From positions 1-27,323 of IMG/VR virus record IMGVR_UViG_2537561979_000007: 27,323 nucleotides of DNA; one strand, written 5' to 3'. The stretch comes from a virus. Its lineage: Duplodnaviria > Heunggongvirae > Uroviricota > Caudoviricetes. Numbering within the stretch: position 1 is the first letter of the stretch; every line of letters begins with the position of its first letter. Position numbers and translations under genes: made by a program. Below the pieces are notes generated by a model. The model saw only the letters and a program-made list of their open reading frames with translations. It did not search any database and was not told the DNA's origin. Below, one piece after another: positions 6,747 through 27,323 of the stretch.

Positions 6747-7439
6747 TTAATTATGTCTCTTAAGGGTTTGCGACTGACTGATTAAGACCTTTCCAAAGAC
6801 CATGAATCGGTGTTCGTTTTCGCTAGTAATTCCCCATTCACGGTAAATCTGGTTATCAGAAATCACCAGCAGTTTGTCAGGAATCATTTGAAGTCTTTTA
6901 ACGTATATTTTGTCATCAAAACCAAAGACATATATACCATCACCATCAAACTGATTGATGCTGACATCAACGAAGATGAGATCTCCTGGCTCAATGGTTG
7001 GACACATACTGTCCCCACGAACGTTGATAACTTTGATGTGATTGGCCGGTCGTCCGCCGAACATTGATACAGCATTATCAGTTCTGTATTCGATGGCATG
7101 AATCACATCAATGACATCACCGCCCTGGATAAGGCCATTTCCCGCACTGGCACTGATATCCAGCATTTCAATACGGAACACATCCTTCACCTGCGCAACA
7201 TCCTCATTATTACTGTTTTTATATACAGTATTACTTTTGAGGGCAGAGGTAAAGAGATCAGCAATATCAACACCTAAGCTCTTGGCAATATTACTCAGTG
7301 TTTGTTCGGTAAATTGTTTTTGCTTACCCGTTTCTAAGCGCGAGATGTTCGCCGCATCTACTCCTATTGCTTCAGCGAGATCGGCGATTTTCATGTTCTT
7401 CGCTTGGCGAAGTTGTCTGACTCGGTTTCCTATGTTCAT
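6747..7439 (-). CDS. CI-like repressor: N-terminal HTH plus C-terminal S24 (LexA-like) peptidase domain, 230 aa
   Basis: HTH (MKIADLAEAIGVDAANISRLETG); S24 motifs GDSMCPTI (Ser) and KRLQ (Lys); divergent from a cro-like gene with operators between. Confidence 0.88.
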   Translation of the reverse strand: MNIGNRVRQLRQAKNMKIADLAEAIGVDAANISRLETGKQKQFTEQTLSNIAKSLGVDIADLFTSALKSNTVYKNSNNEDVAQVKDVFRIEMLDISASAGNGLIQGGDVIDVIHAIEYRTDNAVSMFGGRPANHIKVINVRGDSMCPTIEPGDLIFVDVSINQFDGDGIYVFGFDDKIYVKRLQMIPDKLLVISDNQIYREWGITSENEHRFMVFGKVLISQSQTLKRHN

Positions 7440-7459
7440 GCGTTTATTACATTTCTTTA

Positions 7460-7522
7460 TTGCGTGATAAGCAAATCAACTTGCGCAAAATAATTGCGTG
7501 AAATAACATGCATAACGCGCAA
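7460..7522. promoter_or_regulatory. Putative OR operator cluster (TTGCGTGATAAGCAA, TTGCGCAA, TTGCGTG...CGCGCAA) with PR/PRM
   Basis: Repeated TTGCG/CGCAA half-sites in the 97-bp cI-cro intergenic region; same half-site as the OL copies. Confidence 0.5.
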
Positions 7523-8691: not shown

Positions 8692-9633
8692 ATGAGCACT
8701 AAATTAACCGGCTATGTATGGGATGGTTGCGCTGCATCAGGCATGAAGTTATCCAGCGTGGCAATTATGGCCCGCCTGGCTGATTTCAGTAATGACGAAG
8801 GTGTGTGCTGGCCATCAATTGAAACCATTGCCCGTCAGATTGGCGCGGGGATGAGTACCGTTAGAACGGCTATCGCACGGCTGGAAGCAGAAGGCTGGTT
8901 AACGCGTAAGGCGCGTCGCCAGGGTAACCGCAATGCGTCGAATGTTTATCAGCTTAACGTTGCGAAGCTTCAGGCAGCGGCATTTTCTCAACTGTCAGAT
9001 TCTGACCCGTCAAAATCTGACGCATCAAAATCTGACCCGTCAAAATTTGATGCGTCGAAATCTGGCAAAAAAGCGGGTTTTCACCCGTCAGAATCTGGCG
9101 GGGATCCGTCAGTAAAATCAAAACATGATCCGTCAGATAAAAAAACTTCTCGTCCGGACGCTTCGCAACCGGACACGCAGACGGCTGAACAGGAGTTTTT
9201 AACTCGCCATCCTGATGCGGTTGTATTCAGCCCTAAAAAGCGCCAGTGGGGAACGCAGGATGATTTGACCTGCGCACAGTGGCTCTGGAAAAAAATCATC
9301 GCCCTGTACGAGCAGGCCGCCGAATGTGACGGCGAGGTGGTTCGTCCCAAAGAACCGAACTGGACAGCCTGGGCAAACGAAATTCGCCTGATGTGTGTGC
9401 AGGATGGTCGTACTCACAAACAAATCTGCGAGATGTACAGCCGCGTCAGCCGCGATCCGTTCTGGTGCCGTAACGTGCTCAGCCCGTCGAAGCTGCGGGA
9501 AAAATGGGATGAGCTTTCCCTGCGCTTATCGCCGTCCGTCAGCACGTACACCGAAAAACGCGAAGACCCGTACTTCAAATCCAGTTACGACAACGTGGAC
9601 TACAGCCAGATCCCGGCAGGATTCAGGGGGTGA
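8692..9633 (+). CDS. Replication initiator (lambda O-like), N-terminal HTH, 313 aa
   Basis: GAGGT SD; HTH-like N-terminus (SSVAIMARLADFSNDEGVCWPSIETIARQIGAGMSTVRTAIARLEAEGWL); iteron-like DNA repeats inside the linker-coding region. Confidence 0.68.
   Translation: MSTKLTGYVWDGCAASGMKLSSVAIMARLADFSNDEGVCWPSIETIARQIGAGMSTVRTAIARLEAEGWLTRKARRQGNRNASNVYQLNVAKLQAAAFSQLSDSDPSKSDASKSDPSKFDASKSGKKAGFHPSESGGDPSVKSKHDPSDKKTSRPDASQPDTQTAEQEFLTRHPDAVVFSPKKRQWGTQDDLTCAQWLWKKIIALYEQAAECDGEVVRPKEPNWTAWANEIRLMCVQDGRTHKQICEMYSRVSRDPFWCRNVLSPSKLREKWDELSLRLSPSVSTYTEKREDPYFKSSYDNVDYSQIPAGFRG
8994..9135. repeat. Iteron-like direct repeats (CCGTCAAAATCTGA variants, about 12-14 bp period) inside the O-like gene; putative origin
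   Basis: At least six tandem, degenerate copies read directly (ccgtcaaaatctgac / gcatcaaaatctgac / ccgtcaaaatttgat / gcgtcgaaatctggc / ccgtcagaatctggc / ccgtcagtaaaatca). Confidence 0.5.
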
Positions 9634-12488: not shown

Positions 12489-12505
12489 TTTTGTGGAGAA
12501 AGTTG

Positions 12506-12868
12506 ATGCGTGATATTCAAATGGTTCTGGATCGTTGGGGAGCATGGGCGGCGAGTGATAGTTCAGGAGTAGACTATTCTCCTATAGCTGCTGGGTTTAA
12601 AGGGCTTCTTCCCTATACAAGCAAAACACGTCAGGCTTGTTCAGATAGTGATGCATTAATTATTGAAGGTTGTCTTGCTCTTCTTAAAAAGCGAAAACCG
12701 TACGAGCATTCTTTGATTGTGGCCCATTACCTGTATGGCATCTCGAAAAGAAAGCTTGCAAGAGCTCGCAAAAAAGATGAGAAATTGATACGTATAGAGA
12801 TACAGATGGCTGAAGGGTTTATTGATGGATGCCTTTCAATGCTGGATGTTAAACTTGAAATGGAGTAG
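12506..12868 (+). CDS. Late-gene antiterminator Q, short QuuD-like type (120 aa)
   Basis: MRDIQMVLDRWGAWAAS...IAAGFKGLLP matches my recollection of short Q antiterminators; GGAG 8 nt before ATG 12506; position after the Nin block. Confidence 0.72.
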   Translation: MRDIQMVLDRWGAWAASDSSGVDYSPIAAGFKGLLPYTSKTRQACSDSDALIIEGCLALLKKRKPYEHSLIVAHYLYGISKRKLARARKKDEKLIRIEIQMAEGFIDGCLSMLDVKLEME

Positions 12869-12873
12869 AAAAA

Positions 12874-12893
12874 AGGGCATTTCTGCCCTTTTT
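12874..12893. terminator. Bidirectional intrinsic terminator between Q and the convergent cassette
   Basis: AGGGCA-TTTC-TGCCCT hairpin flanked by AAAAA on one side and TTTTT on the other. Confidence 0.5.
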
Positions 12894-13335
12894 AAATGTG
12901 GGGGAGTATCCAGTTTACTTTTCTCCATGTAAAGGCAAAAGTTATTACTGAAATGATAAGAAGAGATAAAGATTCGATAATTAAAATAAATTCTATTTTT
13001 TCTCCATGTAACAATGTCTTTTCATTGGCAAACATTGCTATCAAAGCAATAACGCATGCCGTAATTAAAGATGCACCTGCGGTTAATAGATTTACAATAA
13101 TAACTTGAAGTATGTTGTTGTTTTTTAATGCTTTTATTATTCCATTTGAGTTTTCGCTAGCAGCACTAAAAATTGATATTGTGGCTAAAATAAAACCAAA
13201 TAAAATACCGGATACAGTTGAAATAACCCCGGAGGCTGTAAGTATGTCAGCATGCCCCATCTGAGGGATATACCTCAGTAGGAACAAGGTGCAAAAAACA
13301 CTTACAATCAGGTTTCTTAAGTATTTCAATAACAT
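12892..13335 (-). CDS. Small integral membrane protein, about four predicted TM helices (147 aa); second gene of the AT-rich cassette
   Basis: Four long hydrophobic stretches; AAGAAGG SD; separated by 3 nt from the upstream gene; visibly AT-rich. Confidence 0.62.
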   Translation of the reverse strand: MLLKYLRNLIVSVFCTLFLLRYIPQMGHADILTASGVISTVSGILFGFILATISIFSAASENSNGIIKALKNNNILQVIIVNLLTAGASLITACVIALIAMFANEKTLLHGEKIEFILIIESLSLLIISVITFAFTWRKVNWILPHI

Positions 13336-13338
13336 ATC

Positions 13339-14279
13339 CTATACCTTCTTTTTGCTGATATCGTATTGCTTAAGGTATTCATTGTTATCAATTTTAGCAG
13401 AAATCATGGCTTGCAGAACATCACTATCAGTGCCATAACCATTAACGGTATATATGTTTTTTTCTGAAATGAGTACCTGATCAAGAAGACTTTGTTCAAC
13501 GGTATTTTTGGGCTGTGTTACTGCCGCTTTTTTTACAATTCCCGGCATTTTTTCAAGGAGTTCTTTAATACCATCCTTAACGAGATCTGATAAATAACCT
13601 TTGACTTTTACTCTCCCTGATGCACGTCCCCTTAGATTTAACTTGAGACGTGTTCCACCCAGCCCTACCATCATATTTACCAGTTCCTTAGAAAATGAAC
13701 TATTTAGCTGGTAATTTGTTGCATCAAAGTTCCTGGGAGCAGCCAGGACAATATCACAACTTCTCAAAGTACTTCCTGTTTCAAGTAGCTCTTTGACGCT
13801 CTCTTTTTTCCAGATGGCTTGGAATGAAAAGTTATTTCCAGGATTACCACTCTGGCTGTAAAGCAGATAAGCTAAATCCGATTCTTTCGGCCCAAGATGA
13901 TTTTGAGTTAATATTAAAATATCACTATCGTAATAATATAAAAAATAGGTTCTTTCGACTATGTATTTTTTATCATCTAGTGGTATGTTGTGCTCATTCC
14001 AGTATTCATCACCAATATAAGGAAGGAGATACTCTTCTCGTGAGCATGACATGTAGCCGAAGAAATATTTAGCTTTTGTATCTTTATTTATAAAAGCTAT
14101 TTTTAACTTTTTATTTCTATAGATGGTATCAAAATGATTATTCGTAACGGTTACGCAAGTATTATACAGATTTTCAATTGCTTGCTTAGCAACTGAATGG
14201 CTGCGGATAGTCCCAGAACTGCTGGTGTAAAAACCAATTTTAAGTTTTTTTGTTTCTTTGATTGCGCAATAGTAGCCAT
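13339..14279 (-). CDS. Hypothetical cytoplasmic protein, first gene of the AT-rich cassette; apparent frameshift at an A7 tract near the 5' end (313 aa if the tract were A8)
   Basis: ATG at 14277-14279 with AAGG SD opens an 11-codon frame that runs into an A7 run (plus-strand T7 at 14245-14251); the 237-aa body (track ORF 13339..14052) is open in the adjacent frame all the way up to that run. Confidence 0.5.
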
Positions 14280-14555
14280 GTTAAACCTTAGTATACTAAT
14301 AATTTCTTATGGATCTTTTTTTATATGGCTTTAATTTAGCAAAAAAAATTACCGCGGTCCGCAAATTTTATCTTAATCTGTTAAGAGTGGTTACTTCGCC
14401 ACACAGCTTAAACCCGCCGTCGAGCGGTTTTTTGTACCTGTAAACCTGGTGCAGTACAGTAAACACGCTGGTGGTCGTGAATACTGACTTTTTATCTTGC
14501 TGGCTTTTTAGACAAGAGTTATTGGTATGTCATGTTAACCAGAAGGGAAAAAGAC

Positions 14556-17423: not shown

Positions 17424-17433
17424 TGGAGTGGAT

Positions 17434-19812
17434 ATGGCAGCAGTAAAAATCTCAGGTGTGCTGAAAGATGGTGCGGGAAAACCAATACAGAACTGCACTA
17501 TTCAACTGAAGGCAAAGCGTAACAGCACCACGGTACTGGTGAACACGGTGGCCTCTGAAAATCCGGATGAAGCCGGGCGTTACAGCATGGATGTTGAGCA
17601 TGGCCAGTACAGCGTCATCCTGCTGGTTGAAGGTTTTCCGCCTTCACATGCCGGGACCATTACCGTCTATGAAGGCTCCAGACCAGGTACGCTGAATGAT
17701 TTTCTCGGTGCCATGACGGAAGAGGATGTCATGCCGGAGGCATTGCGTCGTTTTGAGGCAATGGTGGAAGAAGTGGCACGCAACGCCGAAGCCGCCTCTC
17801 AGAGCGCAGCGGCGGCAAAGAAATCCGAAACTGCAGCGGCATCATCGAAGAACGCGGCGAAAACCTCAGAAACGAATGCAGCTAATAGTGCACAGGCGGC
17901 AGCGACCTCAAAGACTGCATCGGCAAACTCCGCGACAGCAGCCAAAAAATCAGAAACCAACGCGAAAAACAGTGAGACAGCCGCAAAGACGAGCGAAACC
18001 AACGCAAAGTCCAGCCAGACGGCAGCGAAAACCAGCGAAACGAATGCTAAAGCCAGTGAAACTGCGGCAAAAAACAGCCAGGCTGCAGCAGCTGAAAGCG
18101 AGAGCGCGGCAGCCGGTTCTGCGACTTCAGCAGCTGGATCAGCAACTGCTGCGGCTAACAGCCAGAAAGCTGCGAAGACGAGTGAAACTAACGCAAAGTC
18201 CAGCCAGACGGCAGCGAAGACCAGCGAAACGAATGCCAAAGCCAGTGAAACTGCGGCGAAAAGCAGTCAGGATGCAGCGGCCCAAAGCGAGAGTGCCGCA
18301 GCCAGTTCTGCAAGCGCGGCGGCTGCTTCTGCCACTGCATCAGCCAACAGTCAAAAAGCTGCAAAAACCAGTGAAACCAACGCAAAGGCGAGCGAGACTG
18401 CGGCGGCTAACTCGGCGAAAGCATCCGCTGCAAGCCAGACGGCTGCAAAAGCAAGTGAAGACGCAGCCAGAGAGTATGCAAGCCAGGCTGCGGAGCCGTA
18501 TAAACAAGTTTTGCAGCCGCTTCCCGATGTGTGGATACCGTTTAACGATTCACTGGATATGATTACGGGGTTTTCGCCGTCATATAAAAAGATTGTTATT
18601 GGTGATGATGAAATAACGATGCCTGGCGATAAGGTTGTAAAGTTTAAACGCGCATCGAAAGCAACCTATATTAATAAATCTGGTGTGCTGACAGAGGCTG
18701 CCATTGACGAGCCACGATTTGAACGTGATGGCCTGCTTATTGAGGGGCAAAGAACTAATCTTCTGCTTAATTCAACAAATCCATCTAAATGGAATAAGTC
18801 AGGCAATCTGGAACTCACAGAAATATCCACGGATTCTTTTAATTTTACTTATGGGAGATTTACTGTAAAAGATACTCTTATTGGTCAAACAAGTGCGATT
18901 AGTATCGTAACGGTTTCTGGCAGTAAAGGATTTGATGTCACAGGTGATGAAAAATATGTGACCATTTCATGCCGTGTCAGAAGTGATGTTGAAAATATAA
19001 GGTGTCGTTTAAGATTTGAACATCATGATGGTTCTACTTACACTTTTTTGGGAGATGCTTACCTCAATTTATCAACACTTGTAATTGATAAAACTGGTGG
19101 TGCAGCAAATCGTATTATTGCAAAGGCTGTAAAAGATGAGGCTACTGGTTGGATTTTCTATCAGGCTACAATTACTGCACTAGATACAGAGAGCATGATT
19201 GGTGCGATGGTTCAATACGCTCCAGTAAAAGGTTCAGACACAGCATCTGGAGACTATCTGGATATCGCAACTCCACAAGTGGAAGGTGGATCAAGTGCTT
19301 CGTCATTTATTGTAACTGATACAACTGCAAGCACCCGCGCAAGCGATATAGTTACAGTTCCAATTAAGAATAATCTTTATAGTCTTCCTTTTACAGTTCT
19401 GGTTGAGGTTCATAAAAACTGGAATAAAACACCAAATGCAGCACCGCGTGTTTTTGATACCGGCGGTCATCAAACCGGAGCGGCTATTATTCTTAGCTTC
19501 GGTTCTTCAGCAGATTACGACGGATTTCCTTATTGCGATATTGGAGGAGCTAACAGACGGGTAAACGAAAACGCATCGCTTGAAAAAATGGTTATGGGGA
19601 TGCGTGTAAAGTCAGATCAGTCTACGTGCTCAGTAAGTAACGGGCGTATATCCAGCGAAACAAAAACCACATGGTCTTATATTCAGAACACCGCAATTAT
19701 CCGTATTGGAGGCCAGACTACAGCCGGGTTACGTCATTTATTTGGTCATGTCAGGAATTTCAGAATATGGCACAAGGCATTGACTGATGCTCAGGTGGGG
19801 GAGTTAATCTAA
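17434..19812 (+). CDS. stf: Side tail fibre protein Stf: lambda-like N-terminus, Ala/Ser/Thr-rich repeat shaft, divergent AT-rich C-terminal receptor-binding domain (possibly LamG/ConA-like)
   Basis: N-terminal MAAVKISGVLKDGAGKPIQNCTIQLKA... resembles lambda Stf; start taken at ATG 17434 after GGAGTG; C-terminal third is visibly AT-rich. Confidence 0.82.
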   Translation: MAAVKISGVLKDGAGKPIQNCTIQLKAKRNSTTVLVNTVASENPDEAGRYSMDVEHGQYSVILLVEGFPPSHAGTITVYEGSRPGTLNDFLGAMTEEDVMPEALRRFEAMVEEVARNAEAASQSAAAAKKSETAAASSKNAAKTSETNAANSAQAAATSKTASANSATAAKKSETNAKNSETAAKTSETNAKSSQTAAKTSETNAKASETAAKNSQAAAAESESAAAGSATSAAGSATAAANSQKAAKTSETNAKSSQTAAKTSETNAKASETAAKSSQDAAAQSESAAASSASAAAASATASANSQKAAKTSETNAKASETAAANSAKASAASQTAAKASEDAAREYASQAAEPYKQVLQPLPDVWIPFNDSLDMITGFSPSYKKIVIGDDEITMPGDKVVKFKRASKATYINKSGVLTEAAIDEPRFERDGLLIEGQRTNLLLNSTNPSKWNKSGNLELTEISTDSFNFTYGRFTVKDTLIGQTSAISIVTVSGSKGFDVTGDEKYVTISCRVRSDVENIRCRLRFEHHDGSTYTFLGDAYLNLSTLVIDKTGGAANRIIAKAVKDEATGWIFYQATITALDTESMIGAMVQYAPVKGSDTASGDYLDIATPQVEGGSSASSFIVTDTTASTRASDIVTVPIKNNLYSLPFTVLVEVHKNWNKTPNAAPRVFDTGGHQTGAAIILSFGSSADYDGFPYCDIGGANRRVNENASLEKMVMGMRVKSDQSTCSVSNGRISSETKTTWSYIQNTAIIRIGGQTTAGLRHLFGHVRNFRIWHKALTDAQVGELI
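17998..18375 (+). repeat. In-frame tandem duplication (2 x 189 bp) in the stf shaft region
   Basis: aacgcaaagtccagccagacggcagcgaa... recurs 189 bp apart (from about 18001 and 18190), encoding two 63-aa TNAKSSQTAAKTSETNAKASETAAK... units. Confidence 0.6.
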
Positions 19813-20093
19813 TGAAAGATTTAACACTCAAATTTGTCGACAGGGCCGACTTTTCGGCCTTTATGGAGAGTATCGGCTATTATGATGATGAGTCGATGCA
19901 GGATGATATTCTTATTGACGTGATAGGTAACGTGTACAAAGAAACCGGAGAACTTACCGAAGATGGCGAGCCGGTATGTGTTAAGGAAGACGGATATTTT
20001 GTAAACGTGCGCATCATTAATGATGCAAAAAAATCGTCAATATTCGATAAATACGCGATTGTTGTTGAGCATCAACTTCGTGGCTGGATGTGA
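19812..20093 (+). CDS. Hypothetical protein between the tail-fibre genes, possibly a fibre assembly/chaperone protein (93 aa)
   Basis: TAATG overlap with the stf stop; function inferred from position only. Confidence 0.45.
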   Translation: MKDLTLKFVDRADFSAFMESIGYYDDESMQDDILIDVIGNVYKETGELTEDGEPVCVKEDGYFVNVRIINDAKKSSIFDKYAIVVEHQLRGWM

Positions 20094-20102
20094 GGGAGAC
20101 AA

Positions 20103-21143
20103 ATGGCTACATCGACAGTAATTCCTGAAGACATCAAAACGCTAAAATCCGACGTTAGCAAATTAAAAAACGATCAAGGAAGCTACGCAACAAAATCTTA
20201 TGTAGACAATAAAACAACATGGAATGGTTATTGCAATGTAATCTATGATCAAAAAACATTGCCAACAACTGGAACTATATTCAGCGGTAAGCTGCATTTG
20301 TCAAATAAGACTGGTGAAACGGAAAACGCTTATAGTGACATATATACCAGAAAAAATATTGATGGTACTAAAGATACAATGACGAGGATCGTCACACATA
20401 ACGGGACAAAAGGTATCTTTTGGGACTTTAGTGATCTTTACGGAGGAACTTTAATTTTCCCTGGCACTGCTGGTTATTTGAAAATGGGTAAGTGCCTCAT
20501 GTCCTATGGGGATCGTGTAGATAATGCCCTGATTAAATTTGATTATACAGACACATTACAGATCAAATATGCTAATCACGGGTCGACCATGACATTAAAC
20601 ACACAGGGAACCGCTTATGCTGGTGTTACTGCTAAATTGTGGGGCAACTCTAGCCGTCCGGTTGTTTATGAAGTCGGTGTTGATGGTGGCGCTTATATGT
20701 TCTATGCGCAGAAAAATACCGATAACACCTATATGTTAAGCGTTAATGGTGCATGTCATGCCACCGCATTTAACCAGCATTCCGACCGGGATCTGAAAGA
20801 CAACATTCAGGTGATCAATAATGCAACCGACCGCATCCGTAAAATGAACGGCTATACATACACGCTTAAAGAAAACGGTATGCCCTATGCTGGTGTCATT
20901 GCACAGGAAGCTCTGGAAGCAATCCCAGAAGTTGTAGGTTCCGCAATGAAATATCAGGACGGTGCAAGCGGATCGGAAGGTGAAGAAGGTGAACGTTATT
21001 ACACAGTAGATTATTCTGGTGTTACTGGCTTGCTTGTTCAGGTAGCCAGAGAGTCAGACGACAGAATAACAGCACTGGAAGAAGAAAATGCAGAATTAAA
21101 ACAAAGATTATCTGCAATTGAGGCGACGCTTGCGTCTAAATAA
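20103..21143 (+). CDS. Tail fibre/spike protein with C-terminal peptidase-S74-like intramolecular chaperone domain (346 aa)
   Basis: SDRDLKDNI followed by GVIAQE and a terminal coiled coil (ALEEENAELKQRL), as in self-cleaving fibre chaperone domains; GAGGGAG SD. Confidence 0.72.
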   Translation: MATSTVIPEDIKTLKSDVSKLKNDQGSYATKSYVDNKTTWNGYCNVIYDQKTLPTTGTIFSGKLHLSNKTGETENAYSDIYTRKNIDGTKDTMTRIVTHNGTKGIFWDFSDLYGGTLIFPGTAGYLKMGKCLMSYGDRVDNALIKFDYTDTLQIKYANHGSTMTLNTQGTAYAGVTAKLWGNSSRPVVYEVGVDGGAYMFYAQKNTDNTYMLSVNGACHATAFNQHSDRDLKDNIQVINNATDRIRKMNGYTYTLKENGMPYAGVIAQEALEAIPEVVGSAMKYQDGASGSEGEEGERYYTVDYSGVTGLLVQVARESDDRITALEEENAELKQRLSAIEATLASK

Positions 21144-21149
21144 TATTAA

Positions 21150-21172
21150 GGGGCCGAGCGCCCCGTTTTATT
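21150..21172 (+). terminator. Intrinsic terminator after the tail-fibre gene
   Basis: GGGGC-CGAGC-GCCCC hairpin followed by GTTTTATT. Confidence 0.5.
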
Positions 21173-21179
21173 GGGTAGG

Positions 21180-21479
21180 ATGAAAATGGATATAACACCT
21201 TTCCTTCATGCACTTTGTGCTGTGGCTGCGCAGGTACTGGTTGGTCTTTTTACCGGAAACTGGGCTTACGGGGCGATAGCCGGTTGTACGTTCTTCATTG
21301 CTCGTGAACATACCCAGGCAGAATATCGCTGGATTGAAATGTTCGGGCATGGCAAGCGTATGAATATGCCGTGGTGGGGTGGTTTTGATCCGCGCGTGTG
21401 GGATGTGGCAAGCCTGATGGATTTTTCTGTGCCGGTGGTGGCTTGTCTGCTGGTCTGGCTGTTGGTTAATCGTGGGTGA
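21180..21479 (+). CDS. Hypothetical small membrane protein (about 100 aa)
   Basis: ORF with two hydrophobic segments; start uncertain (TTG 21171 in the track, ATG at 21180 or 21186). Confidence 0.45.
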   Translation: MKMDITPFLHALCAVAAQVLVGLFTGNWAYGAIAGCTFFIAREHTQAEYRWIEMFGHGKRMNMPWWGGFDPRVWDVASLMDFSVPVVACLLVWLLVNRG

Positions 21480-21952
21480 AAAAGGGAGTTGTAAACGCAA
21501 CACAGGAAGAGGTGCCGCTTCAGGTTGCTGGGAATAAGCGCCGGGGTCTGTTAAATCATGCCAATACGCTAATCGAGCCAGATATTGAGTAGCCTGCAGT
21601 CCGTCATGGCGTAATCGTTTTGTGATATGCTGCACGCCGTATGCAAGGAGCATGATTGCGCTCGACTGGCGAGCGCTCGATAGTGCTACTATTGAATGAT
21701 TGCTAGTCTAGGCGGATTGTACTTAAGTAATATGACGGTTCAAGGCGTTTAATCTGAAACCAGCCACATATTAGCCTTTTCAAACATTTCCTGAACACTC
21801 AGGCTTACCTGCTCTTTCTCGTGCTTGCTGGCATTTGTGTTGAGCGCCGGTGAATACTCTTACTCAACACTCCCAGAATTATATCTGTTGCATCAGGCAG
21901 ACCATCAAAATTCTTTTGTCATAAACGAGTTCCACGAATAATGTGCCCTATG

Positions 21953-21971
21953 GTAGGGCACTATTGATATG
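21953..21971 (-). terminator. Putative terminator hairpin downstream of the minus-strand gene 22025..22819
   Basis: Perfect palindrome GTGCCCTA-TGG-TAGGGCAC, followed on the minus strand by ATTATT (weak U-tract). Confidence 0.4.
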
Positions 21972-22024
21972 AATGAGTAGCTAAAAAGATTTTTCGTTAT
22001 GTATTAATGTATCTGTCACTTATT

Positions 22025-22819
22025 TTATAGTAAAGATGATATGCCAGCAAGAAATGGAGTAAATACTGTAATGTGTGCAGATACATTATTAATAAAGTCC
22101 TTATATGCTTCTTTAAAACAGCCGCTTTGGTGACTGGCTGCCAGTGCCTGTACATTATCTATAAGGTGTGATTCTGTCGCGCCATCAAAGTTTTTCGATT
22201 TTATTGCCTCAATCATTTCATTAAATATTGTGGGCTCATTATAATTTGTCGTAGTAGTTGCCGTAGCACCTGAAGAATGTATATTGATACTAGAACCGGA
22301 AATTCCACTGACATGAATATTAGCTTCTTGTTTCATAAGAGGTAAACCATTCTCCATCTTGTATAGGTCACTATCTTGTAGCATCTGCAATGTGATACGT
22401 ACTGCTGCTAATAGTTGTTCTTGCTTTTTGAATAAGGAACACATCTGTTCTACAGACCAAAGCTGAACTGCATTTTCTTCGCATGTTTTTTTAGCTATAT
22501 TTGGCACTTCCGAATCATAATTACCATAAACCCAAGTGTCCTTGAATCTTTCGATAATAGCTGTCAACGTTGGAAATTTACTGAAATCACTATTAATGGA
22601 TAGTAACTCATCAGACATATAAAGTGCCATATCTCTGCCTTCCGCATATACTGCTTCCACTTTATTCCGTGTTGCAAATGGTATTCTTGAAATAAAACGA
22701 AAATCCTCTTCATTTTTTAAATGGACCCAGTCTTTATCAAAACGGCTAAATTCGTACCCTATCGATAACAGTCTACTTATATATTGGGCTACTGATTCCA
22801 AATCTTTTCTTATGTCCAA
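22025..22819 (-). CDS. Hypothetical protein, AT-rich orphan (264 aa from TTG 22819; 271 aa from TTG 22840)
   Basis: Long ORF with no in-frame ATG for about 70 codons; AGGAGT lies 6 nt before TTG at 22817-22819; terminator-like palindrome downstream; no family recognised. Confidence 0.55.
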   Translation of the reverse strand: MDIRKDLESVAQYISRLLSIGYEFSRFDKDWVHLKNEEDFRFISRIPFATRNKVEAVYAEGRDMALYMSDELLSINSDFSKFPTLTAIIERFKDTWVYGNYDSEVPNIAKKTCEENAVQLWSVEQMCSLFKKQEQLLAAVRITLQMLQDSDLYKMENGLPLMKQEANIHVSGISGSSINIHSSGATATTTTNYNEPTIFNEMIEAIKSKNFDGATESHLIDNVQALAASHQSGCFKEAYKDFINNVSAHITVFTPFLAGISSLL

Positions 22820-23289
22820 AGTATTACTCCTGCTTGTCAACCGAATCTGTCGGTTTTCTTACAAATGGCTTGTCTTTAAAGTTCTGATTAAAAAGACGCT
22901 AACCAATACTTAATAATACATGAAAAAAAAGCGCATAAGCTGGCTTTTTTATCAATCGGGAACTGCGGCCCCTTTGCGTATCCTTTTTTGTTTCTTCACC
23001 GTCTGGTCGGTGTTCTGCTGAGACTGCTAATTTCCTGTTTTTGCTAGTGCTGTCTTGGCACTGTCCATCGTGATTGGTGGACTGGTGAAGTTGAAACCGC
23101 AGACACGTCGTATGCAAGAACGTGCTGCGGCTGGCTGGTGAACTTCCGATAGTGCGAGTATTGAATGATTTACAGCCGTTATTGATTTTACATATTTTTT
23201 GTATGAAAGGATTAGCGCCTCCTCCCACCGATCCTCCATGACTTTACGCCACTGTCTCTAGGACTGCTATGTGCTAGGAACGGACATAG

Positions 23290-23652
23290 AAAACACGATG
23301 TTATAAGATTAGGTGCATCTATCCGATAGTATTCATTGGACGTGATGATCGTACTAAGCCGATCTCAAAGGAAAGCATTAATCAGGTAATTGAGCTATTA
23401 GGATAAAAAGGAAGGCTGACGGGGCATGGTTTTCGTCACACAATGAGTACCATTCTGCACGAAGAAGGATTCAACTCTGCATGTTTCGAAACACAACTTG
23501 CACATGTGGATAAGAACGCTATTCTCGGGGCTTACAATCATGCACAGTATTTGGAAGGGAGACAACAGATGATGCAGTGGTATAGTGAATACATAGATAG
23601 CTTGTCTAGAAATAGACTTCCGCAATTTTTTCTTCAAAAAAAGGCAGTATGA
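23290..23652 (+). pseudogene. C-terminal remnant of a P4-type tyrosine integrase (5'-truncated, in-frame stop at 23404)
   Basis: ...GRDDRTKPISKESINQVIELLG*KGRLTGHGFRHTMSTILHEEGFNSACFETQLAHVDKNAILGAYNHAQYLEGRQQMMQWY matches the C-terminal catalytic region of P4-type integrases by recollection (HGFRHT box, AYNHA Tyr box); about 280 N-terminal residues absent. Confidence 0.65.
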
Positions 23653-23714
23653 ACAATAAATCTAGTTGATGCATACAAAGGTTTATTGTCGATAGCAAGA
23701 GGAGCGTCAAAATC

Positions 23715-26700
23715 ATGAATGTACAGAAAACCAAATTTTCATCTAAAGAATTTCTAAGGCGCCGTCGCCCTGAAAAATTTTCTGATTCAACAATCAGAGA
23801 GACTGGTACTTTAGACAGAGTTGTACTGGAACACTTCCTCTCTACGCTAAATACAAGAAATCAAGAACTACAATTCGAAGATTTTGCAAAAAAAATATGT
23901 GAAAAAATAATTTGCCCTAATCTCCTTGAACAAACTGGCCCTGTAGCAGGGGGGGATGGTAAAACTGACACACAAACATTCCCTGTTTCAGAACAGAATA
24001 AGCTTCTTTGGTTCGAAGGCGTTAATGAAGCATCAAATAGAGAACGCTGGGCCTTTGCGGTAAGTACACGTAAAGACTGGAAGAAAAAATGCCATGAAGA
24101 TGTACTTAAGATAAAAGAAACAGAACGTGGGTATGCTAAAGTATTTTGCGTAACGAACCAGTCTGCAAAGTCCAATATTCGTTCAGAGGTTGAGGATACA
24201 CTAAAAACAAAAACTGGAATAGATGTTCGTATATTAGATATTAATTGGCTATTAGATCAAATTTACAAAAATAATTTTGAGCAATTGGCCATTGATTCAT
24301 TGTCAGTTCCAACGCAATATAAAAGAGAAGTTATTTTTGGAGAAAATGATTATAAAAAGCATAAAAAATATGAAGAGTTAACCGAGTATATTAGAGAGAA
24401 AATAAACCCTGCTGAAATTTCATATGAACAGGTGGATATTTTTTTAGAAATTGCAGAGTTAAGCGCTGAACTTGAGAAACCACTAATTGAAACACAAGGT
24501 CTATTTGAAAGAGCTATAAAAATATCAAAGAAATTCGGGACTAATCAACAATTGCTAGATGCGTATTATCAATATGCCTGGAAGTCTCATTTTTGGATGG
24601 AAGATTTTAATCTCTTTGAAGAAAATCTTCAATTTGCATATGAAAGTATTGCATCATCAACTAATTCCTCAAAATGGGAGAAAGTTTTAAATTTAGTAAC
24701 CGTTCATAAAAGTTATATTAGACTTAACAACGCAACATCTACAATCGATATTGAGAATATTGAACGTAACATGCTCGCTAAACTAGATGAGATAGCTGAC
24801 GATGAATCACGTCCCAGTAATGCACTCACAGCGAGAACTCACAAAGCTATTTATAAATTGACAACGTTTTCAGATGTAGAAGATGCTTCGGTTGTATTTG
24901 AAGAGTTACATGAAATTTTTAAAAATAGTGGAAATTTAATAGGCTATTCCTTTGAGAAGAACTTCCAACTTTTGAACGAACTGGATGACATTTTTTTCGA
25001 GGTAGATGCATATGAAAATTTATTAGACTATATGACTGAGCAATCTGCTGTTAGAGGTGGTGAAGTTAAAGGGGCATTATTAAATCTACGAAGAGGTATA
25101 AAGAGGATTCAAAATGGTCACCCTTATCAGGCAATCAAGTATTTAGGAAAATCATTTATACCACTCTATAAAGAGGAATCACGAGATAAATTTATATTAG
25201 CATTAAAAGCTATTGCTTATGCTTACGAATCCATTGGGTTGCTATGGAGTTCACGTTCATGCTTGCTTCTATCCGCTTCTTTGATTACAGATAACTACTG
25301 GAAGTATGATGAGATATCATTAAAGCAGGCTGAGATTTATTATAGTTTATGCCTGGCAGAAATAAAACTAGGGAAATTAGCACATGCTCTTTTATGGTAT
25401 GAACTGTTTTTAATAATTAACCAAAATATCAGTGATAGCTCGTTCGGCGATAAAGAAAATCAGCAAGTTGATTTTTACATAAGTCAACTCATTTTGAACA
25501 CTGACCTAAATGGAATAAATCGACAGAGTAATATTCCCGATGAACTCGATAGATTAGGTCTTTTTGTATCATCTGGATGTCTTAAATATGCTTTAGGTTA
25601 TATTGAAAATTTTGAACATGAGTACGAAGTTACTGCCGATAAAGATCATAATGATTTCTTGCAAAAAATACGTGACTTTGATGCTGGATTCAATAGTAAA
25701 GGCATAAAAGATAACTATGATAAACGAGGAATATATACATCTTTTATTTTTGGATGCACTATAGAAATTAACTTTCCGAATCGGTCACCATTTATAGAGT
25801 TTTCAACTAGTATCTTAGCGCTTTTAGAGAGTGCTTTTGCAACTTGTACGATTGATAACATCCATCTGAAAGAAGCATTTTTAATTATTGAAGTAATAGC
25901 AGATGATGAAGATGACTTCTCCTTATCACATGAAATAAATAGCAATAATGGAAAACTAAACCTTACTATAAATTGCAATGGTTTTGAAACAAGTGCATTT
26001 AGAGTCGATGTTCAACAAAAAATTACTAATGAATTCAAGAAAATAGTATTTGATCTTCTCCCTGAGTTATTTTTTATAAAAAATACAGAATACATTGAAA
26101 GAATGATATTCGAAGATGCTGCATTTGACAGAGCAATTAGTTTCGGTGCCTGTATCAAAGCTATTGAAAATGTTCTTGGAAATGATATTGATCAACAAAT
26201 TAAGAAAATTTATTCCACCAGTACTGAAAAGAAAACTTACCCTCTTTTAAGAGATAAACCCTGGGATAGTGAATTTCCAAAAGTGTTGGAGATCGAGGAT
26301 GTAAATGTTCCAACACCTGGTAAAGGAATAATGCCTGAAGAGGAACTTAATTCCGAAAATATAACGCATAAAGATTATTCAATACAAAGTCTAATCAAAC
26401 CTCGTCTATGGGATAGAACACGCTGGCAAGGAGTAGGCTTCGCTCAATTAAAATCGTGTTATCCAGGGTTATATCTATTATTTAAACACCCCGATATAGG
26501 TGAGGATATTTTTAAAGATCTTATATCATCAGTAGGCTTGGTAGATAGTAAAGCCAGATTACGGGTTTGTATTGTCAAGGGTATTTCAGTTAAAAACCCA
26601 AATCATTATAGAGTACTGATATCTGAAAATATGATGACAACGCCATTAACTAAAAGAATGACAATGATCAGTAGAATTAATACGATGACTCCTGATAGTA

Positions 26701-26966
26701 ACGTCAATTTAGAAAGATTTCTTGCTGCGTATCAGGCCTGTGGAAAATTCTATCTTGGATGTGATGCGATGTTAAAAAATATTGTTCCTGAGCATCCACA
26801 AAGAGATAGTTTAGGGATAGAAATGAGTACGTTAGATGTTAGGTGGGCTTGGGAAATTGGGTTAAATGATGTTGATTGTATTGGGGTTAATTTAAAAGAA
26901 GATGACCCCTATATTCCTAGTGATGTAGCTGAGATCCCATTATTGCAATTGATAAACAGTAAATAA
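23715..26966 (+). CDS. Large orphan protein (1083 aa): N-terminal Mrr-like PD-(D/E)xK nuclease-type motifs plus about 900-aa predominantly helical C-terminal region
   Basis: Uninterrupted 3.25-kb ORF, GAGGAG upstream, visibly AT-rich; N-terminal GGDGKTD ... AFAVSTRK ... KVFCVTNQS resembles the Mrr catalytic pattern (GDGGIDG ... QCK ... GVFITTSSF); no Walker A/B motifs. Confidence 0.8.
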   Translation: MNVQKTKFSSKEFLRRRRPEKFSDSTIRETGTLDRVVLEHFLSTLNTRNQELQFEDFAKKICEKIICPNLLEQTGPVAGGDGKTDTQTFPVSEQNKLLWFEGVNEASNRERWAFAVSTRKDWKKKCHEDVLKIKETERGYAKVFCVTNQSAKSNIRSEVEDTLKTKTGIDVRILDINWLLDQIYKNNFEQLAIDSLSVPTQYKREVIFGENDYKKHKKYEELTEYIREKINPAEISYEQVDIFLEIAELSAELEKPLIETQGLFERAIKISKKFGTNQQLLDAYYQYAWKSHFWMEDFNLFEENLQFAYESIASSTNSSKWEKVLNLVTVHKSYIRLNNATSTIDIENIERNMLAKLDEIADDESRPSNALTARTHKAIYKLTTFSDVEDASVVFEELHEIFKNSGNLIGYSFEKNFQLLNELDDIFFEVDAYENLLDYMTEQSAVRGGEVKGALLNLRRGIKRIQNGHPYQAIKYLGKSFIPLYKEESRDKFILALKAIAYAYESIGLLWSSRSCLLLSASLITDNYWKYDEISLKQAEIYYSLCLAEIKLGKLAHALLWYELFLIINQNISDSSFGDKENQQVDFYISQLILNTDLNGINRQSNIPDELDRLGLFVSSGCLKYALGYIENFEHEYEVTADKDHNDFLQKIRDFDAGFNSKGIKDNYDKRGIYTSFIFGCTIEINFPNRSPFIEFSTSILALLESAFATCTIDNIHLKEAFLIIEVIADDEDDFSLSHEINSNNGKLNLTINCNGFETSAFRVDVQQKITNEFKKIVFDLLPELFFIKNTEYIERMIFEDAAFDRAISFGACIKAIENVLGNDIDQQIKKIYSTSTEKKTYPLLRDKPWDSEFPKVLEIEDVNVPTPGKGIMPEEELNSENITHKDYSIQSLIKPRLWDRTRWQGVGFAQLKSCYPGLYLLFKHPDIGEDIFKDLISSVGLVDSKARLRVCIVKGISVKNPNHYRVLISENMMTTPLTKRMTMISRINTMTPDSNVNLERFLAAYQACGKFYLGCDAMLKNIVPEHPQRDSLGIEMSTLDVRWAWEIGLNDVDCIGVNLKEDDPYIPSDVAEIPLLQLINSK

Positions 26967-27170
26967 AATGTTTGCCAAGAATACCGCCTCTTAAGGGGCG
27001 GGTTCTAAACAAATCTTTAGCCTCTTCACTAATGCTATTAGTGTTATCGCTTTTACAATAAATTGCCGACCTGCCCCCATTGCTTAACACACATCGAAGT
27101 AAGTATGCATTCCGAACTTCCGCCCCTCGCTCATAACAGACATTCACTACAGTTATGGTAGAAGGTATGT

Positions 27171-27323
27171 ATGCTGATTGGGGAAAGTGTGAAAGAAAAG
27201 AAGACTGCTGCGCTGTTTGTCGTCACGTTTATCTTCATTGGCTATGCAAGTCATAATACAAGGTGGGACAAAACTGAGACACATAAGGCCTCACAATGGC
27301 TTGCAAGGCTTTACATGTTTTGA
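27171..27323 (+). CDS. Possible small membrane protein (50 aa), ending at the window edge
   Basis: ATG 7 nt after GAAGG; one hydrophobic helix (AALFVVTFIFIGYA); stop codon is the last three bases of the window; short ORF, low confidence. Confidence 0.3.
   Translation: MLIGESVKEKKTAALFVVTFIFIGYASHNTRWDKTETHKASQWLARLYMF

Follow-up and report, generated by a model that had tools for sequence, protein, structure and literature searches.

A solitary cargo gene at an Escherichia coli prophage end looks like a member of a large, modular, defence-like protein family

In AbiTii, one of the closest described systems, an N-terminal domain of ~180 residues is fused to c2405-family HEPN domains that have a 'conserved H but lacks R' (Anantharaman et al., 2013; PMC3710099). 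AbiJ and AbiTii proteins are single polypeptides carried by mobile elements, in which a non-catalytic N-terminal domain of ~100-180 residues is followed by interchangeable C-terminal effectors (HEPN, TIR, REase) (PMC3710099). A similar layout is found in a 27,323-nucleotide stretch of viral DNA (IMG/VR record IMGVR_UViG_2537561979_000007, referred to here in its entirety as the window), where a minus-strand gene at 22025..22819, with a TTG start and a TAA stop, encodes a 264-residue protein identical to the E. coli 'hypothetical protein' WP_000354607.1. This protein, the target of the analysis, looks like an uncharacterised member of a large modular defence-like family, and like a variant of the single-chain sensor-effectors of the abortive-infection (Abi) type as opposed to a categorically new system. 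From sequence comparison and structure prediction, we give about an even chance to the reading that it is a stand-alone, horizontally mobile, single-chain sensor-effector protein of the Abi type, composed of two exchangeable modules and possibly acting on membranes.

The N-terminal domain (residues 1-160; 22340..22819, minus strand) is the predicted sensor or regulatory module, and AlphaFold2, run with the family alignment, models it as all-alpha with block means of the predicted local distance difference test (pLDDT) of 87-97, the mean for the target being 83.6. It carries the conserved motifs IRxD, W-HLKNxEDF, E..Y..GRD, FN...PT, M..LF..Q and LYKxENG. When 1.8 billion cluster representatives were searched by profile, 1379 matches were obtained at E<=1e-3 and 620 at E<=1e-10; most of the best 150 matched through residues 1-160 alone, at the N-terminus of proteins of 200-740 residues, and at least 35 unrelated C-terminal classes stand behind the domain among these best 150 of the 1379. 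Between distant architectures the domain is 26-43% identical, with R4, L17, Y58, G61 and M126 invariant across architectures and ~18 further positions conserved at 90% or more. In ~30 scanned proteins there was never a significant Pfam or PADLOC match to this region, and neither a profile search nor a fold search found a match to it in the PDB.

The partner domains that follow it are defence-type effectors. They include TIR_2 and SEFIR domains (P0165, P0238 and, with an additional receiver domain in front, P0198), a TIR of the CAP12/Pycsar type (P0163), a PNP_UDP_1 phosphorylase (P0217) and CHAT proteases (P0187, P0252); a phage tail-collar domain was found in P0157, and P0141 gave weak LRV-repeat matches that lie below threshold. 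In PADLOC, partner C-termini matched Thoeris ThsB, Argonaute-associated TIR, RT-TIR, SAVED-TIR, SAVED-CHAT, a CBASS PN-superfamily effector, PDC-S35 and PDC-S54 (the last at E 1e-74), and a transmembrane-like segment is present in 29 of 77 C-terminal extensions. Since TIR, CHAT, PNP and membrane modules are all found behind one domain, in solitary genes borne by mobile elements, which is how single-polypeptide sensor-effector proteins of phage defence typically look, the N-terminal domain is predicted to be sensing or regulatory and the C-terminal module (C-module) to provide the output. The original prediction had proposed an abortive-infection or toxin-like accessory gene, and the partner effectors and the defence and mobile-element contexts described below speak for this proposal, the function as such being predicted from these comparisons.

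The C-module of the target starts with a beta-prone linker rich in Ser, Gly, Asn and Thr (residues 161-196, ...IHVSGISGSSINIHSSGATATTTTNYNEP; 22232..22339, minus strand), which has a pLDDT of 31-40 and short strands only, residues 163-194 being modelled at low confidence. It is followed by four short helices that form a C-terminal four-helix bundle (residues 197-264; 22028..22231, minus strand), a predicted effector or assembly module with invariant F199, Y239, F242 and H249. The hydrophobic tail of the bundle, VSAHITVFTPFLAGISSLL (residues 246-264; 22028..22084, minus strand), is the only hydrophobic stretch in the protein, with a Kyte-Doolittle mean of 1.53 over its 19 residues and 1.8 over the last 15, and the monomer model buries it in the bundle. 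The linker pattern is conserved, with Ser182 invariant, and takes in a Ser/Thr/Gly/Asn-rich patch (SGATATTTTNYNEP, residues 183-196) that had been taken for low complexity; the patch is indeed present, as part of a conserved linker that travels with the bundle and not as mere low complexity. Linker and bundle are also found behind an unrelated N-terminal domain of ~90 residues, apparently beta-rich by sequence, in proteins of ~190 residues, and the N-terminal domain and the C-module are shuffled independently. In PADLOC, the C-module gave a weak match to PDC-M14B (residues 163-251 on profile positions 149-239 of 267; E 1.7e-3; 8 of 33 members), and a profile search of the PDB with it returned nothing. 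Stand-alone C-modules of ~104 residues are doubtful, and the one examined (P0261) was a gene-calling artefact, the full-length open reading frame (ORF) being intact at the locus.

Homologues of the full-length target form 85 clusters by sequence search and 115 by profile search, nearly all of 261-268 residues, and occur in gamma- and beta-proteobacteria, namely in Escherichia, Enterobacter, Klebsiella, Serratia, Edwardsiella, Vibrio, Pseudoalteromonas, Marinomonas, Pseudomonas, Stutzerimonas, Celerinatantimonas, Delftia and uncultured beta-proteobacteria. The gene had been called an orphan, which does not hold for a family of ~115 clusters within a wider N-domain superfamily of up to 1379 cluster representatives. 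Across 33 diverse family sequences 28 columns are invariant, and dN/dS (the ratio of non-synonymous to synonymous substitution rates) is 0.18-0.21 in the three homologue pairs in which dS was not saturated, the only pairs from which it was taken; the gene is real and under purifying selection. In 21 family loci the start codon is TTG in 6, GTG in 9 and ATG in 6, and such a share of non-ATG starts (15 of 21) is far above typical bacterial usage. This bias suggests selection for low translation and fits a protein that is harmful when abundant. In an uncultured gammaproteobacterium (locus L030) the family gene is broken in two, one ORF encoding the N-domain (7001-7480) and another the C-module (8782-9135); they lie 1.3 kb apart, probably by insertion. 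The target has no significant family match in Pfam, NCBIfam, PHROGs or PADLOC, and the earlier statement that it has no recognisable catalytic motif agrees with the lack of Pfam, NCBIfam and PHROG matches; weak matches to MethyTransf_Reg (15-18 bits), XopF1, SflA (PDB), TCAD9 and AbiJ_NTD5 were treated as noise.

Family genes are solitary and lie in mobile-element or defence contexts. In Pseudomonas veronii the family gene is carried by a P4-like satellite and adjoins genes of the gop/beta/cII type (Beta_protein and P4 cII by Pfam annotation), and two more loci share a primase-type neighbour with this satellite; in lambdoid prophages, family genes are found between the replication genes and the Q antiterminator and at prophage ends, and one member lies inside an integrative conjugative element. 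Next to defence genes, the family gene adjoins Wadjet JetABC in P. putida KT2440, and in one E. coli locus a 613-aa reverse transcriptase and a SMEK-domain gene. In an Edwardsiella prophage, between int and the repressor, its neighbours are a gene for a DUF4145 (HEPN) protein and a pair of ATPase genes (AAA_15/AAA_21), and in Delftia it adjoins Phd/CcdB. In qualitative terms, placement beside defence genes or in mobile-element hotspots is recurrent. No conserved neighbour was found among 34 family loci, whose neighbours were clustered and not annotated, nor was there a second N-domain gene near family members in these loci or cross-similarity among the upstream and downstream ORFs between loci. 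The genome scan was seeded with the closer alignment, A1.

According to the proposed mechanism, the resting lysogen would contain a low level of the protein, translated from the weak TTG start and held inactive with its last hydrophobic helix buried in the bundle. When another phage infects, some cue would act on the N-terminal domain, and the activated protein would self-associate via the beta-prone linker, after which the C-terminal helices would be freed into the inner membrane, membrane integrity would collapse and the infection would be aborted. In the sister proteins, the same N-terminal domain would trigger TIR, CHAT, PNP or transmembrane outputs. For the target, the analogy with Bab/Agp suggests such an assembly-driven membrane attack, because its C-terminal end is hydrophobic and buried in the bundle and a beta-prone linker precedes the bundle. 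The anti-phage role, the division into sensing and acting modules, the oligomerisation and the membrane target are the parts of this scheme that we infer.

Several observations weigh against this reading, whose weakest part is the effector assignment of the target's own C-module. The bundle is a generic fold, the C-module contains no catalytic motif, the hydrophobicity of the tail is borderline for membrane insertion, and the G-phi-Q-phi-G core of RHIM, PP and BASS3 motifs is missing from the target linker, which has no Pfam RHIM match. The N-terminal domain has ~20 near-invariant, mostly charged residues, which is unusually conserved for a sensor of phage proteins; ligand binding or catalysis would explain this conservation no less well, and the many conserved charged residues are easier to reconcile with a ligand or host factor that is itself conserved than with a phage protein that evolves fast. 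In E. coli the gene is rare, being found in 105 of 5426 complete genomes (one copy each, at least 99% identity), and in nearly all of these it lies just downstream of sitD, so that it may be hitch-hiking. By tblastn the target was not found in 50,697 sequenced phages (INPHARED), a literature search by accession number returned no paper that mentions the protein, and the context evidence is qualitative, without statistical scoring.

Among the rival explanations, the most probable, though still unlikely, is that the target is a defence or conflict protein whose bundle is an adaptor or assembly domain recruiting a partner encoded elsewhere, and not a membrane effector. A small, generic four-helix bundle without a catalytic motif, with a tail of merely borderline hydrophobicity, would suit such a role, and PADLOC lists PDC-M14, whose B protein weakly shares the module, among its multi-gene candidates. 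Both the 34 loci without a conserved neighbour and the sister proteins that carry true effectors (TIR, CHAT, PNP, transmembrane) at the same position speak against an adaptor. The target shows only the partial weak match to PDC-M14B instead of a full-length one accompanied by PDC-M14A, no conserved partner being present in neighbours that were not scanned with PDC-M14A. An improbable alternative is that the gene acts selfishly, as a toxin, as an addiction module or in competition between elements, and so keeps the prophage stable or shuts out rivals, any anti-phage effect being incidental. The gene does occupy mobile-element cargo positions, its weak start codons suggest toxicity, and one member adjoins a Phd/CcdB toxin-antitoxin pair; however, the repertoire of partner domains is that of phage-defence effectors, and the hallmarks of such modules were not seen. 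The flanking ORFs differ between loci, with no conserved adjacent gene of antitoxin size as in type II toxin-antitoxin systems; no tandem repeats that could represent an antitoxin RNA of the type III (AbiQ/ToxIN) kind, and no Rfam family above threshold, were found in 21400-23800; and, with respect to polymorphic toxins, the gene downstream is not conserved, even between members that share the C-module, and no Pfam secretion-associated domain was found.

The conservation pattern of the N-terminal domain keeps in play a further reading, quite improbable in our estimate, in which this domain is a receptor for a nucleotide second messenger and the protein an 'orphan' effector that answers a signal produced in trans, whether another system or the phage is its source. 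The near-invariant R4, D6, R16, K35, E38, D39, E55, Y58, R62, N76, Q133, Y153 and E156 suggest a pocket, and the output types (CAP12/Pycsar TIR, SAVED-CHAT-like CHAT, PN-superfamily effector, transmembrane) match those found behind SAVED, CARF and cNMP sensors, but the fold search shows no likeness to known sensor domains, and no candidate cyclase recurs, as the clustered, unannotated neighbours in the 34 loci include no conserved one. Very improbable is a bundle that represents a degenerate c2405-type HEPN-like RNase, with the conserved His and no Arg, behind an AbiTii-like N-terminal domain. This idea draws on UniProt, where A0A376LPF7, a near-identical E. coli protein from the same 90%-identity cluster, is called 'AbiTii domain-containing protein', on the AbiTii fusions to c2405-family HEPN domains mentioned at the outset (PMC3710099), and on the invariant His249 (N-x3-H), which opens the last helix of the four-helix bundle. 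AbiTii is described as an alpha+beta domain with a highly conserved Glu, found in front of HEPN domains of the c2405 or Ymh type. Set beside this description, the target has an all-alpha region (residues 1-160) and then a beta-prone stretch of low confidence, conserved E38, E55 and E156, and a bundle with His and no Arg. A HEPN fold whose last core helix opens with an Rx4-6H motif was not found in the target, and Pfam AbiTii (PF18864) matched neither the target nor its 32 aligned homologues nor the UniProt-labelled P0277, even at E<=10. A c2405 candidate of strain CFT073, chosen by its position seven genes after tcpC, a weak DUF4145 match and an HhH domain, showed no similarity to the target family by hhalign or hmmsearch; since this candidate is itself missed by Pfam AbiTii, the AbiTii negative is not decisive, as the model may be narrow. 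The UniProt label could not be reproduced, and the architectural logic is the same either way. Finally, a functionless passenger or mis-called ORF is hardly credible. The gene is rare and nearly invariant in E. coli and has no promoter-like site directly upstream; against this, the full-length frame is conserved over many genera with dozens of invariant residues and a dN/dS of ~0.2, and the AlphaFold2 models are confident, and by virtue of this conservation the passenger reading is effectively refuted.

At the level of the gene call, the 264-residue start is the right one, because a Shine-Dalgarno sequence, AGGAG (22827..22831, minus strand; read straight from the sequence), lies 7 nt 5' of the TTG start codon (22817-22819), RefSeq annotates the identical 795 bp as WP_000354607.1, and homologues of many genera share the first residues M-[DE]-[IV]-R-K-D. 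In the same minus-strand frame, a further-upstream TTG would give 271 residues (22025-22840). The original prediction of a real, TTG-started gene preceded by AGGAGT is thus borne out by the homologue starts and RefSeq, and its remark that there is no in-frame ATG for about 70 codons holds for the 271-residue frame, codon 64 of the 264-residue form being the first internal Met. A terminator-like palindrome, GTGCCCTACCATAGGGCAC (21943..21961, minus strand), is present as had been noted, 64 nt past the stop codon and with an 8-bp stem, but its T-tail is weak, and since one terminator-like site was found around the target against 1.1 expected from shuffled sequences, the palindrome alone is no evidence of a terminator. 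A sigma-70-like site was not found directly upstream of the gene. The ORF has a GC content of 35.6% (27.5% at third codon positions), compared with 47.6% over window positions 1-21000, which hold the prophage, and this agrees with the view that it is unlike the neighbouring phage genes in composition, as foreign cargo at a prophage end.

In the window, proA is followed by tRNA-Thr (thrW, 1369-1444), an integrase and a lambdoid prophage with tail-fibre genes (17428-21143); next come a small membrane protein (phrog_1443), a DinI-like pseudogene, the target, the C-terminal remnant of a P4-type integrase (23443-23652) and an ORF of 1083 residues, so that the gene does lie, as had been stated, between the tail-fibre end and an integrase remnant. 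The region as a whole consists of islands arrayed in tandem at thrW, on the downstream side of proA. In E. coli strain 6409, a 52-bp stretch over the 3' end of thrW (1399-1450) recurs just after the 1083-aa gene, at a place that would lie just past the end of the window, where it precedes the intact integrase of a P4-like satellite, and no internal copy of it was found between the prophage and the integrase remnant of the window. Positions 20398-23245 are 98% identical to a prophage end of extraintestinal pathogenic E. coli (ExPEC), and in ExPEC genomes the target lies directly 3' of sitD, in the same orientation, at a Rac-like site adjoining uspF-ompN. The window retains the sitD-distal intergenic sequence without the sit genes: positions 22900-23245, upstream of the target, are intergenic DNA found downstream of sitD in ExPEC genomes, and an A/T hairpin with a T-run lies inside this region at ~22921-22950. 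From 23097 on, the window matches strain 6409, and in that strain the same DNA comes after a different tail-fibre module; positions 23097-23245 are common to the sit-linked and the strain 6409 contexts and mark a recombination junction. The gene is full-length in 104 of the 105 E. coli genomes that carry it and is present in four IMG/VR contigs, and it was not found in PLSDB plasmids by tblastn.

Directly after the integrase remnant, the 1083-aa ORF (23715-26966, plus strand) has 33% GC and no significant Pfam, NCBIfam, PHROG, PADLOC or PDB sequence match, and it may be another cargo or defence gene. Positions 23100-27323 are covered to at least 80% in 23 complete E. coli genomes, and the same annotated arrangement is found in strain 6409. 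This ORF was considered as an Agp-like partner of the target, and the idea was dropped because the two are not co-inherited, the target lying beside sitD in the loci examined; nor does the 1083-aa protein have TPR, GreAB or PIN matches or an amyloid-like N-terminus. A resemblance, seen by eye, between its N-terminus (GDGKTD) and the C-terminal domain of the P0153 class received no support from hidden Markov models. Inside the prophage, a second AT-rich patch (12500-14500, 34-38% GC) with minus-strand ORFs at 12892-13335 and 13339-14052 looks like another cargo insertion, and a very strong AT skew of 0.30-0.53 at 17500-18500, inside the gene for a 794-aa tail protein (17428-19812), may reflect a repetitive segment.

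If the favoured reading is true, the window encodes one member of a large family of sensor domains that has neither a Pfam or PADLOC (v2) model nor a solved structure, and that bacteria would place, as an exchangeable sensor, in front of TIR, CHAT, PNP and membrane effectors. E. coli prophages would then carry one more defence family of the single-gene kind, and the 264-aa E. coli protein would offer an easy entry to what the conserved domain senses. In ExPEC the gene immediately follows sitABCD, the operon for iron/manganese uptake, at the end of a prophage, and a locus linked to virulence may therefore be passed on along with a putative gene for phage resistance.

With regard to known systems, the target shares with AbiJ and AbiTii the modular logic outlined above and differs in that neither Pfam AbiTii nor an AbiJ_NTD model matches it, the Rx4-6H motif is lacking, and its N-terminal domain is modelled as all-alpha and not alpha+beta. 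Two PADLOC candidates are related to parts of the family: the C-terminal third of PDC-M14B weakly matches the linker and bundle of the target, and a sister architecture (the P0153 class) shares the C-terminal domain of PDC-S54, with E 1e-74. Both profiles are without the N-terminal domain, however, and PDC-M14 is a multi-gene candidate whereas the target is solitary; a literature search found no paper that mentions PDC-M14 or PDC-S54, and both are uncharacterised candidates.

In concept, fungal HET-S (a HeLo domain with a prion-forming motif) and metazoan RHIM proteins are similar in that a beta-assembly motif controls a latent helical membrane-targeting domain, and RHIM-like cores can be seen by eye in some sister proteins (e.g. 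NISGPANVQIGDYNQQ, NSPANVQIGNQNTQ), while the target linker itself is without a Q-phi-G core. In the sister architectures these cores (ANVQIGDYN, ANVQIGNQN, NFQGIxGNV) occupy the linker position and are followed by Gly-rich hydrophobic ends. RHIM/BASS-like cores of this kind (NISGPANVQIGDYNQQ, NFQGI[LMW]GNV) were noted by eye in P0237, P0161, P0236, P0148, P0139, P0204, P0207, P0251 and P0273, between the N-terminal domain (another N-terminal domain in P0273) and a Gly-rich hydrophobic C-terminus. Pfam RHIM was matched by P0273 alone, a relative of the C-module, at 17.9 bits against a threshold of 20. The core pattern is present in 8 of the 77 extensions against 1.4 expected from shuffles, a weak test in that the pattern was defined after the sequences had been viewed, the sequences are related and five of the eight fall in one class. 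Amyloid pairs have the same motif at the termini of proteins from two adjacent genes, whereas the 34 loci show neither a conserved neighbour nor a second family member; the amyloid-like reading is a lead and not a finding.

Bab/Agp of E. coli ECOR25 (bioRxiv 10.1101/2024.11.07.622273) is likewise prophage-hotspot cargo of E. coli, in which a small helical domain with a terminal hydrophobic helix stands beside a short, Gly/Ser/Asn-rich, beta-prone motif and in which the proposed output is membrane damage after beta-assembly. In contrast, the motif of the target is internal to one chain, without a partner, and the order is reversed (motif, bundle, hydrophobic helix), the likeness stated here being one of description. 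A more far-reaching idea, distinctly unlikely in our judgement, is that the family is a one-chain beta-assembly switch, in which a sensor, a RHIM/BASS-like motif and a latent membrane-targeting bundle would form a proteobacterial counterpart of HET-S/NWD2, RIPK and Bab/Agp, with the same, hitherto undescribed N-terminal domain driving TIR, CHAT, PNP and transmembrane outputs across many phyla. By sequence and by fold search, the N-terminal domain is unrelated to the SAVED, CARF and cNMP-binding domains of CBASS, Pycsar and type III CRISPR sensor-effectors, and no conserved neighbour was found that could supply a signal-generating enzyme; what the family has in common with these systems is the same repertoire of output domains on one conserved, predicted sensing domain.

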